Notes: generated by a model not told the origin, from the sequence alone. 64,000 nucleotides of DNA from a virus (IMGVR_UViG_3300044451_000174:10722-74721), one strand, 5' to 3'; shown: positions 24,233 to 26,905, numbered from the stretch's first letter. Made by a program: numbers and translations.

Positions 24233-24748
24233 TTACGACACCACCCGGTTCAGAACGAACTCCACCTCTGGACGCTCTGCGCGAAACGTCCTGAACAACT
24301 CCTCGAACAGAACGAAGTGATCTTCCCGGTCCTCCCACAACCTAAGTCGTTGTGGATTAAGGGTTAAGAGTTGTCGCAGCCCCGAAGTTTTGCACTCGAA
24401 AGTGTTGATTCCGGGGCAGTCCTTCTGGCCCTGAAAATAGGTCAGGCCGAAGGCGAGGCCGTAGTGGGTGCAGATTTCGAGGACGCGATTGCGTAGTTTG
24501 TACGGTCGCCCCGTCATCAGCACGCGGAGATCGCATTCTTTGGCGCGGCAGATCTCGGCGACTTCTTGAATCAAGAACTCGTCACCCGGCTTCTCTGGGA
24601 AGACAGGAGGGATCAGAGATTCCAGTCGGCCGTAGAAACCGATGTGCGGCCACGGGTTCCCGGTCGCCGCGAGGAAGTCTTTCTCGGCTTGCTCGCGTCC
24701 GGGCGTCTTGACGAGTGTCCCGTCAAAATCGAAAACGTCGATATTCAC
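24233..24748 (-). CDS. HAD-superfamily phosphatase
   Basis: DVFDFDGTLV is HAD motif I. The start is uncertain. A GTG with a GGAG ribosome-binding site sits at 24748, and the longer ORF begins at 24910. Confidence 0.55.
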   Translation of the reverse strand: MNIDVFDFDGTLVKTPGREQAEKDFLAATGNPWPHIGFYGRLESLIPPVFPEKPGDEFLIQEVAEICRAKECDLRVLMTGRPYKLRNRVLEICTHYGLAFGLTYFQGQKDCPGINTFECKTSGLRQLLTLNPQRLRLWEDREDHFVLFEELFRTFRAERPEVEFVLNRVVS

Positions 24749-25026
24749 TTGTACTTCTCCTGAAACTTGCCGGTTTTGAGCCATCTGAGCCGCCAGCCCC
24801 CGCGAGCGGCAGCTTCTCTGCGTGTAGAACACTGATTGGGCATGCCCGCGAACTGATGGCAAACGCCGTTGTGCCAGACGCGGAACATCCACGGGTAGGG
24901 GTGGTTCCACCCGTGTTCAACTTTGTAGGTTTCGACGCGGTCTGTCACGGCTTCTCTCGGTTGTCCCAGACTCGGTTCTGCCCATCGGGTACGCAGAATG
25001 AATCGTAGAGAGTTTCTTCGACCCAT
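24745..25026 (-). CDS. hypothetical protein (93 aa or shorter)
   Basis: ORF. It overlaps its neighbours and the start is uncertain. Confidence 0.3.
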   Translation of the reverse strand: MGRRNSLRFILRTRWAEPSLGQPREAVTDRVETYKVEHGWNHPYPWMFRVWHNGVCHQFAGMPNQCSTRREAAARGGWRLRWLKTGKFQEKYK

Positions 25027-25286
25027 TTGAAGTAAAGCACCTTGATGCCTTCTTCGTCGCGGTACGGCGCGATCATGACCGCCCGATCTTCGATCTGTGC
25101 AAAGATCACTTTGATTTTATCGGGGTCCACGGTGTCGAGAACCTGTGTGCCTTGCGACCCGAAGACCAAACGGCGGAACTGCCCGTCCTCGAAAAGAGGG
25201 TACGCCTGAGCCGCAAGTTCCTTGATGAACTTCCACCCCAGATCGCGGATGATGAACGGCGTGGCTTGGACGCTGTATTCCAGCAC
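24945..25286 (-). CDS. hypothetical protein (113 aa), GTG start
   Basis: ORF. The start codon reads as GTG. Confidence 0.45.
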   Translation of the reverse strand: MLEYSVQATPFIIRDLGWKFIKELAAQAYPLFEDGQFRRLVFGSQGTQVLDTVDPDKIKVIFAQIEDRAVMIAPYRDEEGIKVLYFKWVEETLYDSFCVPDGQNRVWDNREKP

Positions 25287-25303
25287 GACATTACCCTCGG
25301 CGC

Positions 25304-25338
25304 AAAAAGAAGCCCTCCCTTGTTATAGGGAGGGCTTC
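25304..25338 (-). terminator. rho-independent terminator for 25355..26905
   Basis: gaagccctccc, loop ttgttata, gggagggcttc. On the minus strand a TTTTT run follows it. Confidence 0.65.
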
Positions 25339-25354
25339 GCTGTTTGTAAACCGA

Positions 25355-26905
25355 TCAGCGGATGAGTGGAACCCAACCAGCCGACTCGGTCGGACGCTCC
25401 TGTTGGGCCGGGCGGTTCTTGATGCGTTCCATCATACGGCCCCAAGACATCGACTCCTTTTTCTCGCCGCCGTCATCCTTCTTTTCCGGTTTCTCCTCTG
25501 CATCCCCTTCGTCAGAAGACGGTCTGGTGAGCGACTTGGCCGCTCCCATTCTTTTCTCCTGCGGACCTTCCTCGCCGCCCATATCGTTTTCGTCCTCGCC
25601 GTCCTTGAACAGACCTTCCGCTTCGCCGCCCTGACCCTTGTTGATCATTTGGAGCCATTCGCGGATCTTGCTCTTGGTCAGCCCGGTGTGGCCCTTAACG
25701 TCCTTGAGCTTGTCGGGACTGAACCCATCCTTTTCAGCCCAAGATGCGATCTTGACCAGATAGGCGATGTCCGATGCTTCTTGTTTGCTCCAGCCGCCGC
25801 CGCCCAGTACCTTCTTGACCTTTTCGGGGTCGTTGTCCCTGAGAACCCAAGCCGGTGCCAACCAGCGGTCGCCACGGAAGTCCGGCGGCATGTCGTCTTC
25901 GCGGAATTCGAGATCAGGGAACACGACGTTCAGAAGGCCCAGACCCTTAGCCGCGCCCATGTACCCTCTGGCGTCCATGTCGGGATCTTCGAGGCCGCTG
26001 AGGAACGATTTGCGGATCTCGGACGGGTCAACGTCGGCCATGTCTTTGAACTGCCCAATCGCCGCTTTTTCCTTGTCGCCGATTCCCGAAAACTTTCCGA
26101 ACTTGCCAGTTTGATTGAGGTAACGGAATGCCGTCATCGGGTCGTCACGCATCTTGTCCATAGGACTGTTGATAAACTTGACCTCGCCCGCCTTCAGGTG
26201 GTGTGCGCCACCATGCGGATCAATCAATTCGCTGTTCTCGCCGTCACTTTGACTCAATGGGATATACATGGCGTTCATCGTGAAGTCGCGACCCATGCTG
26301 TCTTCTTCGACGCTGGTCGCAACGTCGGCTTTGTCCGGGTTCACCCGGCGACTTTTGCCGTGCTTGCCGAGGGACGCAAGCTCGAACTTCTCGCCGTTTA
26401 TCTCGACGGTGATCTCGATCTCTTTGCCCTGTCCGTCCCAACGGCTGGCGTAGAAGCACCGACGCTTGTTGCCGCTCGGCAGATCGGCGTACCGCTCGTC
26501 CTGACCCATCTCGCCGTCTTTCGGCTTGACCTCAGTAAACGGTTGTTCCGAGTTGGAGAGAATCATGCGGACTTCGGAAGGAGTGGCGTCCGTAACGAGG
26601 TCGTAGCCCTTCGGGGTTTTGCCCTTGAGGTGGTCGCGAACCGCGCCGCCGGTGAGCCACAAGTTCTTGGCCTTCATCAGCGGTTCGTGTTCGCCCTTCG
26701 ACTTGTCGATGGTGGTGTAGCCGAGGCCGACCTGACCGCTGCCCTTGAAGGCTTGGATCAGTGTGCGGAGGTTCGGGCGGGTAGCCTTATCGACGCGGAA
26801 AGGAGAAAACTCCGCAGAGCCTTCTTGCTTTTGCAGTTTGATTTTGGACGAGATGGGGGTCTTGGCGTCTCGTTCTTCGCGGAACAAAGTGAACTTTTTC
26901 ATCAT
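25355..26905 (-). CDS. cca: CCA-adding tRNA nucleotidyltransferase / poly(A) polymerase family protein
   Basis: LWLTGGAVRDHLKGKTPKGYDLVTDATP matches the polymerase-beta nucleotidyltransferase head motif GGAVRD...DxD. RDFTMNAMY matches the CCA-enzyme RDFTINA motif. Confidence 0.75.
   Translation of the reverse strand: MMKKFTLFREERDAKTPISSKIKLQKQEGSAEFSPFRVDKATRPNLRTLIQAFKGSGQVGLGYTTIDKSKGEHEPLMKAKNLWLTGGAVRDHLKGKTPKGYDLVTDATPSEVRMILSNSEQPFTEVKPKDGEMGQDERYADLPSGNKRRCFYASRWDGQGKEIEITVEINGEKFELASLGKHGKSRRVNPDKADVATSVEEDSMGRDFTMNAMYIPLSQSDGENSELIDPHGGAHHLKAGEVKFINSPMDKMRDDPMTAFRYLNQTGKFGKFSGIGDKEKAAIGQFKDMADVDPSEIRKSFLSGLEDPDMDARGYMGAAKGLGLLNVVFPDLEFREDDMPPDFRGDRWLAPAWVLRDNDPEKVKKVLGGGGWSKQEASDIAYLVKIASWAEKDGFSPDKLKDVKGHTGLTKSKIREWLQMINKGQGGEAEGLFKDGEDENDMGGEEGPQEKRMGAAKSLTRPSSDEGDAEEKPEKKDDGGEKKESMSWGRMMERIKNRPAQQERPTESAGWVPLIR

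Follow-up and report, generated by a model that had tools for sequence, protein, structure and literature searches.

A clade-specific paralogue of class II tRNA nucleotidyltransferases with an incomplete catalytic aspartate pair, encoded close to a Swiss-army-knife HAD phosphatase in an uncultured huge phage

The idea that phages repair RNA with CCA-adding enzymes and Swiss-army-knife HAD phosphatases is already published, and both families have been treated as RNA-repair components of jumbo phages (PMC7824862). CCA-adding enzymes were listed there among the end-restoring nucleotidyltransferases, the linear phosphatases of phage RNA repair were described as typically either PKN-HAD proteins or stand-alone Swiss-army-knife HADs (Iyer et al. 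2021, PMC7824862, section 3.4.9), and an RNA substrate for the latter was given as a prediction. We analysed a stretch of viral DNA of 64,000 nucleotides (IMGVR_UViG_3300044451_000174:10722-74721; hereafter the window), originating from an uncultured huge phage, in which a gene for a protein resembling CCA-adding enzymes (the CCA-like protein) lies close to a gene for a HAD phosphatase. An earlier note had read these two genes, together with a SprT-like gene and an unannotated 284-residue open reading frame (ORF), as a tRNA repair or anti-anticodon-nuclease module. The single gene families on which that reading was built were borne out, whereas a coherent module was not, in view of a terminator between the two genes, the lack of a ligase or kinase among the ~67 window ORFs scanned and an incomplete DxD motif in the CCA-like protein. 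The explanation that we favour as a whole, with confidence slightly better than even, is that the locus comprises two transcription units and not one repair module, and that the CCA-like protein is a paralogue which does not carry out canonical CCA addition.

The closest described systems

Class II CCA-adding enzymes, such as those of Mycobacterium phages (Myrna-type gp27/28), of Caulobacter phage BL47 (gp320) and of bacteria, share with the CCA-like protein the PF01743 domain, the GGxVRD, RDFTxNA and DPxGG motifs, the second aspartate of the DxD pair, the aspartate of motif D and the head-neck-body-tail fold. The CCA-like protein departs from them, however, at the first aspartate of the pair (replaced by Gly or Asn), at the Arg of EDxxR (Thr) and at the Arg of TTFR (Gly or Ser), and further in an apparently relaxed third carboxylate, an N-terminal domain of ~80 residues, an insert of ~40 residues in the head and an acidic tail. 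For the phosphatase, the pattern DxDGT...(S/T)GR...K...(D/E)DR is common to the window HAD, to the stand-alone Swiss-army-knife HADs of jumbo phages and to the HAD domain of T4 Pnkp and of Pnkp1. Like the jumbo-phage proteins, the window HAD is a stand-alone domain in a phage context, but neither a kinase, fused or adjacent, nor a ligase accompanies it in the window, and its gene is co-operonic with those of a zincin-like and a glycosyltransferase-like protein. In the tRNA repair of T4, Pnkp and Rnl1 counter the PrrC anticodon nuclease. An end-healing phosphatase of the HAD type is likewise found in the window, yet no RNA ligase or polynucleotide kinase was detected among the ~67 window ORFs scanned against Pfam, and the CCA-like protein would act on the 3' tail rather than on the anticodon loop, with an active site that is not canonical.

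Pseudo-nucleotidyltransferases with a Pol-beta fold and lost catalytic carboxylates include MiD49/51, the DZF domain of NF45/NF90 and the N-terminal domain of TUT4/7. In these, as in the CCA-like protein, the fold and the ligand-binding surfaces are kept while catalytic acidic residues are substituted; all of them are eukaryotic and unrelated in sequence to the CCA-like family. We know of no pseudo-nucleotidyltransferase of the class II CCA type, and a literature search for such a pseudo-enzyme returned no example. What is new here is a large and conserved huge-phage family of CCA-enzyme look-alikes without the canonical catalytic pair.

The CCA-like protein and its active site

The CCA-like gene (25355-26905, minus strand) encodes a protein of 516 residues with a class II tRNA nucleotidyltransferase fold, as assigned from PF01743, phrog_2244, alignments to PDB and family sequences, an AlphaFold model and Foldseek. 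The PolyA_pol head domain PF01743 was matched at 72.8 bits (Pfam cut-off 23; E 4e-20) and the phrog_2244 tRNA nucleotidyltransferase family at E 5.5e-20. The protein fell below every NCBIfam CCA/PcnB equivalog cut-off (45-70 bits against 290-700), its top scores there being 70.7 bits (cut-off 305.65) and 51.2 bits (cut-off 438.8). Its AlphaFold model, with a predicted local distance difference test score (pLDDT) of 85.8, was aligned over its full length by Foldseek with 4x4w, 8cbm, 6qy6, 5hc9 and 1miv (366-430 columns, E 6e-13 to 2e-10), which are solved CCA-adding enzymes, tRNA complexes among them, and by both methods the head-neck-body-tail architecture was complete. Peculiar to the family are an N-terminal extension of ~80 residues, an insert of ~40 residues in the head (119-160) and a disordered acidic tail. 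A word-indexed search returned 341 homologues, for which the name 'tRNA nucleotidyltransferase/poly(A) polymerase' is in use in several sources; many of the 341 come from contigs 100-670 kb long. By fold and superfamily we place the CCA-like protein in class II, though not among the canonical CCA-adding enzymes; it is a class II tRNA nucleotidyltransferase paralogue specific to the phage clade of the window.

Among the motifs that the earlier note had listed, GGAVRD (residues 86-91) and RDFTMNAMY (206-214) were found in the protein, while the DxD was not, the ungapped alignment giving G100-Y-D102 in its place. The register of the catalytic positions was set by ungapped HMMER alignments to E. 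coli poly(A) polymerase and the Planococcus CCA-adding enzyme, with both of which the window stretch GGAVRDHLKGKTPKGYDLVTDATP is in register. In these alignments KDFDVTT of the former and HDVDVAS of the latter stand against K-G-Y-D-L-V-T of the window and, since no gap intervenes, the first catalytic aspartate is Gly100 in the window and D102 is the only one left. At motif D the protein reads DDPMT258 in place of EDxxR, so that the templating Arg has become Thr. Motif B, by comparison, is GRDFTMNA, and its R206, D207, T209 and N211 are invariant in the family, as are the GG, R90 and D91 among the 42 invariant columns of the family alignment.

These substitutions recur across the family, for which counts were made on 122 aligned sequences, one of them a fragment gapped at positions 100, 102 and 175. 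At position 100, the first Asp of the pair, Asn was found in 103 sequences, Gly in 13, Asp in three and Ser in two; at position 102 there were 116 Asp and five Asn. In 120 of the 121 alignable relatives the pair lacks one aspartate or both, usually as N-Y-D, and three family sequences carry N-x-N. Position 175 corresponds to the third catalytic carboxylate (the Glu of YEVTTFR), which we take to be Glu79 in Bacillus numbering. The window protein keeps E175 (in FELASLG), while across the family the position is unconstrained (39 Glu, 27 Asn, 11 Asp, 11 Arg, seven His and seven Tyr) and the Arg that follows the strand in TTFR is Gly or Ser. The canonical third carboxylate is, as far as the alignment can tell, under relaxed selection in this family. 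At position 258, the Arg of EDxxR, Thr was found in 109 of the 122 sequences and Arg only in the orthologue from the huge-phage record LR756511, which is also the only sequence with the complete canonical set D-D-E-R. Five other phage CCA enzymes served as controls: those from Mycobacterium, Tunturiibacter, Aeromonas and Caulobacter phages retained the DxD, the Glu with the Arg behind it and EDxxR without exception, and the fifth, the LR756511 orthologue, retained the DxD, the Glu and EDxxR.

A sequencing error as the source of Gly100 was rejected, as Gly is found in 13 aligned sequences (the window and 12 independent clusters) and Asn in 103. The pair taken for the DxD in the earlier note was probably D102...D106, a misreading in which D106 does not stand at a metal-ligand position. 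D106 as a substitute ligand for the lost Asp100 was likewise discarded on reasoning: it aligns with the T, S or N of canonical enzymes, the canonical LR756511 orthologue has Asp there too, and D102 is four residues away along the chain. It marks the start of a predicted helix (109-117), where a helix N-cap residue would sit.

To our knowledge, every characterised active nucleotidyltransferase of the Pol-beta fold has an acidic residue at the first DxD position. Both aspartates of the motif are described as essential for catalysis, and an AxA variant as inactive (PMC11784652). Our argument rests mainly on the DxD because CCA enzymes stay active after losing the motif D Arg alone (PMC2532741). 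On balance, we consider it somewhat more probable than its retention that canonical nucleotidyl transfer has been lost in the CCA-like protein. The triphosphate and ribose motifs GGAVRD and RDFTxNA, the second Asp and the motif D Asp are retained, and we infer that the protein would bind the acceptor end of tRNA, and perhaps a nucleoside triphosphate, without canonical CCA addition. It would then be either a non-catalytic binder of tRNA ends or an enzyme with rewired chemistry.

Several observations weigh against a loss of catalysis. The replacing residues are themselves conserved (Asn100 in 84% and Thr258 in 89%), and E175 is still present in the window protein. The strand paired with that of the third carboxylate also carries conserved acidic residues, namely E162 (121/121), E164 (111/122) and E168 (94/122). 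An acidic residue was found at 164 or 175 in every CCA-like sequence: position 175 is acidic in all ten sequences without E164 as against 40 of the 111 with it (Fisher p 8e-5), the ten falling into only ~3 independent lineages. This pattern is suggestive, at the level of aligned residues, of a relocated carboxylate with metal chemistry retained; it was not adopted as proof of one, given that p of 8e-5 comes from so few lineages, and is kept as a caveat. The survival of activity in CCA enzymes without the motif D Arg (PMC2532741) counts in the same direction. As for the separation of the two genes in transcription, terminators can be leaky. A rewired site that is still active is nevertheless, in our judgement, unlikely.

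We regard as a long shot a more far-reaching proposal, in which this huge-phage family of at least 120 sequence clusters would have given up polymerisation to bind tRNA 3' tails as a shield, decoy or sensor, protecting or sequestering acceptor ends from host immunity aimed at tRNA tails, with the neighbouring HAD cleaning damaged ends; a pseudo-enzyme that arose from a CCA-adding enzyme would be the first of its kind. The distinction matters for annotation, in that surveys of huge phages take the 'tRNA nucleotidyltransferase/poly(A) polymerase' labels given by automated annotation as CCA-adding capacity, and if most members of the clade cannot add CCA the translation and repair toolkit of huge phages has been over-called. 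If the family were a non-catalytic binder of tRNA ends, it would open a way to study how huge phages cope with immunity directed at tRNA; were it instead kept active by a relocated carboxylate, the two-metal site of the Pol-beta fold would have been rewired in a manner rarely met in nature.

Transcription units, the HAD phosphatase and synteny

A terminator scan and RNA folding located an intrinsic terminator behind the CCA-like gene (25304-25338, minus strand), with a perfect stem of 12 bp (8 G-C pairs), a loop of 6 nucleotides and a UUUUU tract. The stem starts 17 nucleotides past the CCA-like stop codon, and the fold has an energy of -31.6 kcal/mol (z -5.2), with none of 200 shuffles as stable. 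In L004, a close relative of 88% identity, a near-identical hairpin is found with a weaker stem base (one G-C pair has become A-U and the outermost pair is lost); no comparable hairpin follows the CCA-like gene in the more distant, AT-rich relatives. On the other side of the CCA-like gene, 21 bp upstream and on the same strand, lies a gene known from the ORF list (26927-27373, minus strand) for a coiled-coil protein of 148 residues with a hydrophobic C-terminus, its Pfam matches being weak and of coiled-coil type. Homologues hold the same position in L004 and in another related locus, L007, and the two genes are probably co-transcribed.

Downstream of the terminator, start/stop overlaps (GTGA) join a gene for a 113-residue protein to a 66-residue ORF and this in turn to the HAD gene, the GTG start of which lies 8 nucleotides after an AGGAG ribosome-binding site. 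The SprT-like gene follows the HAD gene by 6 bp, and the gene for the 284-residue protein, which has a GT-A glycosyltransferase fold, follows the SprT-like gene by 13 bp. The terminator and this translational coupling downstream of it place the CCA-like gene and its HAD neighbour in different units. The first unit would consist of the coiled-coil gene, the CCA-like gene and the terminator, and the second would be a five-gene operon of the 113-residue, 66-residue, HAD, SprT-like and GT-A genes.

The HAD gene, bearing the DFDGTL motif reported before (24233-24748, minus strand), encodes a stand-alone phosphatase of 171 residues of the HAD_SAK_1 family, as judged from PF10307, motifs I-IV and its homologues. 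Its reading frame is open to 24910, and the JGI call of 183 residues is over-extended; the GTG start used here agrees with the 171-residue MNIDVF... start in L004. The match to PF10307 ('HAD domain family 1 in Swiss Army Knife RNA repair proteins') reached 28.8 bits (cut-off 25.6) for the window protein and up to 57.9 bits (E 1.6e-15) for its orthologues, and nearly all database homologues carry this domain. The earlier note had tied its reading to a complete Asp pair in the CCA enzyme and to motifs II and III of the HAD; the former proved incomplete (G-Y-D), and both of the latter were intact. Motifs I (DFDGT), II (TGR), III (K) and IV (EDRxxH, or (E/D)DRxxH in the family) are all present, and D21, D23, T25, T93, G94, R95, K134 and D154 are invariant in 19 sequences down to 26% identity, with R155 nearly so. 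The best solved relative of the family profile is the HAD domain of Pnkp1 (4xrp), aligned over motifs I-IV with a weak E of 0.076, which we take as a hint from sequence comparison. The protein would be an intact PNKP-like Swiss-army-knife phosphatase, with the 3' phosphates of RNA ends as its predicted target. Among huge phages further removed, L002 (8540-10981) and L003 (LR745206, LR756502), a HAD_SAK_1 homologue adjoins genes for a ClpS adaptor and a large terminase.

No nucleotide-level match to the window was found in the phage collection, and relatives were recovered at the protein level only, the best of them being uncultured huge phages of 485-642 kb. The closest public record, LR756511.1 (595 kb), encodes a CCA-like protein of 43% identity and a counterpart of the neighbouring 491-residue protein of 57% identity. 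JGI metagenome contigs of up to 254 kb carry an identical stretch. Synteny was surveyed in eight related loci, the window and the identical contig L008 being taken as one. The HAD gene lies within one gene of the CCA-like gene in four of the eight (window/L008, L004, the P0058 contig and LR756511), at 2.5 kb in L007 and at 6.5 kb in the P0014 contig, so that the two are within ~8 kb in six; it is absent from the remaining two loci, L005 and L006. In the P0014 contig (JGI 3300047160, 670 kb), genes for a UvrD-type helicase, an RNA_ligase (PF09414) and PARG_cat_microb stand between the CCA-like and HAD_SAK_1 genes, and this is the closest approach to a true RNA-repair cluster encountered in the clade. 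Twelve HAD clusters match a CCA-like cluster in the length of their longest contig, one such contig being 2.6 kb. A gene order of ~12 genes recurs at 40% to 90% identity, with a giant protein, the 491-residue orthologue, a 163-residue protein and the coiled-coil protein upstream of the CCA-like gene, and the SprT-like, GT-A, histidine phosphatase and ClpP genes downstream. Because the genes that flank the pair keep their order on either side, its adjacency by itself carries little weight. Within the clade the CCA-like and HAD genes are truly linked, in a way that is indistinguishable from backbone collinearity.

The more viable of two other readings of the locus is an active repair pair. The CCA-like protein would be active in repairing tRNA 3' ends, by means of a rewired metal site made up of D102, of Asn100 or water, and of E164, E168 or E175; the HAD would remove a 3' (or 2') phosphate left by a nuclease of the tRNA tail or acceptor stem, and the nucleotidyltransferase would rebuild the end. 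Such a pair would accord with the intact HAD of a predicted RNA-repair family, with the linkage of the two genes within ~8 kb in six of eight loci and the shared longest-contig sizes, including the 2.6-kb contig, and with the RNA ligase and PARG/macro-like gene between them in the P0014 relative. The conservation of E162, E164 and E168 and the rule that 164 and 175 are never both non-acidic fit it as well, as does the place of both families among jumbo-phage repair components (PMC7824862); tRNA 3' tails are, moreover, described as a target of bacterial immunity (PMC12851939). Set against it are the Gly at the first DxD position of the window and the N-x-N of some relatives, where an acidic residue would be expected from all active members of the fold known to us. 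The terminator also separates the two genes, no HAD lies beside the CCA-like gene in two of the eight loci, HAD homologues stand beside ClpS and terminase genes with no CCA gene nearby in other huge phages, the flanking genes on both sides are equally syntenic, and the window ORFs scanned gave no kinase or ligase. We hold the active pair to be doubtful.

The remaining reading, of functionally unrelated neighbours brought together by inherited clade synteny, the HAD acting on a nucleotide or sugar phosphate and possibly feeding the GT-A protein, and the CCA-like protein having nothing to do with tRNA repair, can draw on the gene order that recurs from 40% to 90% identity, on the translational coupling of the HAD and GT-A genes in one operon and on the position of the region between virion-type genes (those of a vault-shoulder protein, a 2690-residue protein and the baseplate), but it is improbable in that HAD and GT-A occur independently (HAD without GT-A in L001 to L003, L001 being LR756511, and GT-A without HAD in L005 and L006), and that the sole family match of the HAD is the RNA-repair-associated PF10307, with Pnkp1 as its best, if weak, solved-structure match.

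Remaining genes of the locus and the window

The CCA-like, HAD, HEFAH-containing (SprT-like) and 284-residue ORFs all have conserved homologues in other huge-phage contigs and thus are not chance ORFs. The first gene of the operon (24945-25286, minus strand) encodes a 113-residue protein with a 64% identical homologue in L004 and no Pfam, PHROG or NCBIfam match. The second, missed by gene callers and recognised by its conservation in L004, is the ORF of 66 residues (24745-24948, minus strand) that begins MTDRVETYKVEHGWNHPYPW... (MTDRVETYKVEHGWNHPYPWMFRVWHNGVCHQFAGMPNQC...). At either end it shares a GTGA with a neighbour, its GTG start with the stop of the 113-residue gene and its stop with the HAD start. 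It is 75% identical to its L004 counterpart over all 67 codons, the differences falling 12:9:31 by codon position, with 21 codons that differ synonymously only as against 17 non-synonymous ones; it carries an H/C-rich stretch and matches no Pfam family. Its neighbours have been over-extended by gene callers, the upstream gene to 179 residues in L004 and the HAD to 183 in JGI. The tail of the 179-residue L004 gene was considered as a homologue of this ORF and set aside, as there was no match in that frame and the separate frame of the 66-residue ORF was conserved.

The SprT-like protein noted before is a putative minimal zincin of 102 residues (23918-24226, minus strand), in which the HExxH motif and a downstream His are present (HEFAH...AHGSVW). 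Its match to PF10263 lies below the cut-off (22.1 bits against 25.6; E 1.4e-4), the LR756511 orthologue reaching the cut-off at 25.9 bits, and a SprT-like gene stands beside the CCA-like gene in every related locus with readable DNA.

The 284-residue ORF exists as described (23050-23904, minus strand) and is the last gene of the operon. The suggestion that it might encode a ligase with a KxDG motif did not survive: its AlphaFold model (pLDDT 93.9) has a GT-A glycosyltransferase fold, which also disposes of a nucleotidyltransferase, and no ligase family was matched by the window protein or by 72 family members. Foldseek paired the model with retaining glycosyltransferases of families GT6 and GT8 (BoGT6a, UGGT, glycogenin and LgtC) at E 1e-6 to 1e-5 and probability 1.0. 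An exhaustive search gave 190 homologous representatives of 250-300 residues, the word-indexed search only close ones, and two family members match HPAT or Glyco_transf_8 models. At the DxD-type donor site the window protein reads PPH as against PDM in the family consensus; within GT6, some members work without a metal.

A gene from the ORF list (22485-23069, plus strand) runs towards the operon and overlaps it at its end; it encodes a 194-residue protein, 80% identical to a homologue in L004 and with no family match in Pfam, PHROG or NCBIfam. Beyond it lies a histidine-phosphatase-like gene (21894-22439, minus strand) for 181 residues, whose match to PF00300 (E 2e-3) is below the cut-off. The protein keeps RH(A), has lost the second conserved His (IVPADF) and has a shortened C-terminal segment, whereas its orthologues in LR756511 (E 9e-12) and L007 keep the His (VTHTDF and VSHCDF), and the gene may be decaying in the lineage of the window.

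No tRNA genes or known RNA families were found in the window or in six related loci. Elsewhere in the window are genes for tail and baseplate proteins of phages (gp25, a spike OB domain and Tail_P2_I), the ORF of 2690 residues and a homing endonuclease. The last, of LAGLIDADG_2 type with two HTH domains (E 5e-21), sits amid the tail and baseplate genes (53301-54320, plus strand). Against a baseline GC content of ~0.57, low-GC patches were seen at 40-42 kb (0.47) and 44-46 kb (0.44), which correspond to the 3' part of the 2690-residue ORF and to an ORF of 477 residues (44086-45519). A protein of 679 residues (31526-33565, minus strand) matches the Major Vault Protein shoulder PF11978 (E 7e-21), with a weak match to the vault repeat; it is conserved in related huge-phage contigs, although phages do not usually encode a shell protein of the vault type.

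Two further loci lie towards the start of the window. An ADP-ribosylglycohydrolase (PF03747, E 2e-73; 345-1475, plus strand) is a possible counter to defence based on ADP-ribosylation, and a short GmrSD_N protein of DUF262 type (E 3e-12; 16781-17311, minus strand) with a nearby AAA ATPase (13568-14755, minus strand) is conserved in L004 and L008. Clustered after the tail genes are a SET-domain protein (E 4e-7; 55171-55683, plus strand), a ParB_N-domain protein (E 2e-6; 57073-57531, plus strand) and a protein resembling nucleoside 2-deoxyribosyltransferase (E 7e-7; 58156-58674, minus strand).

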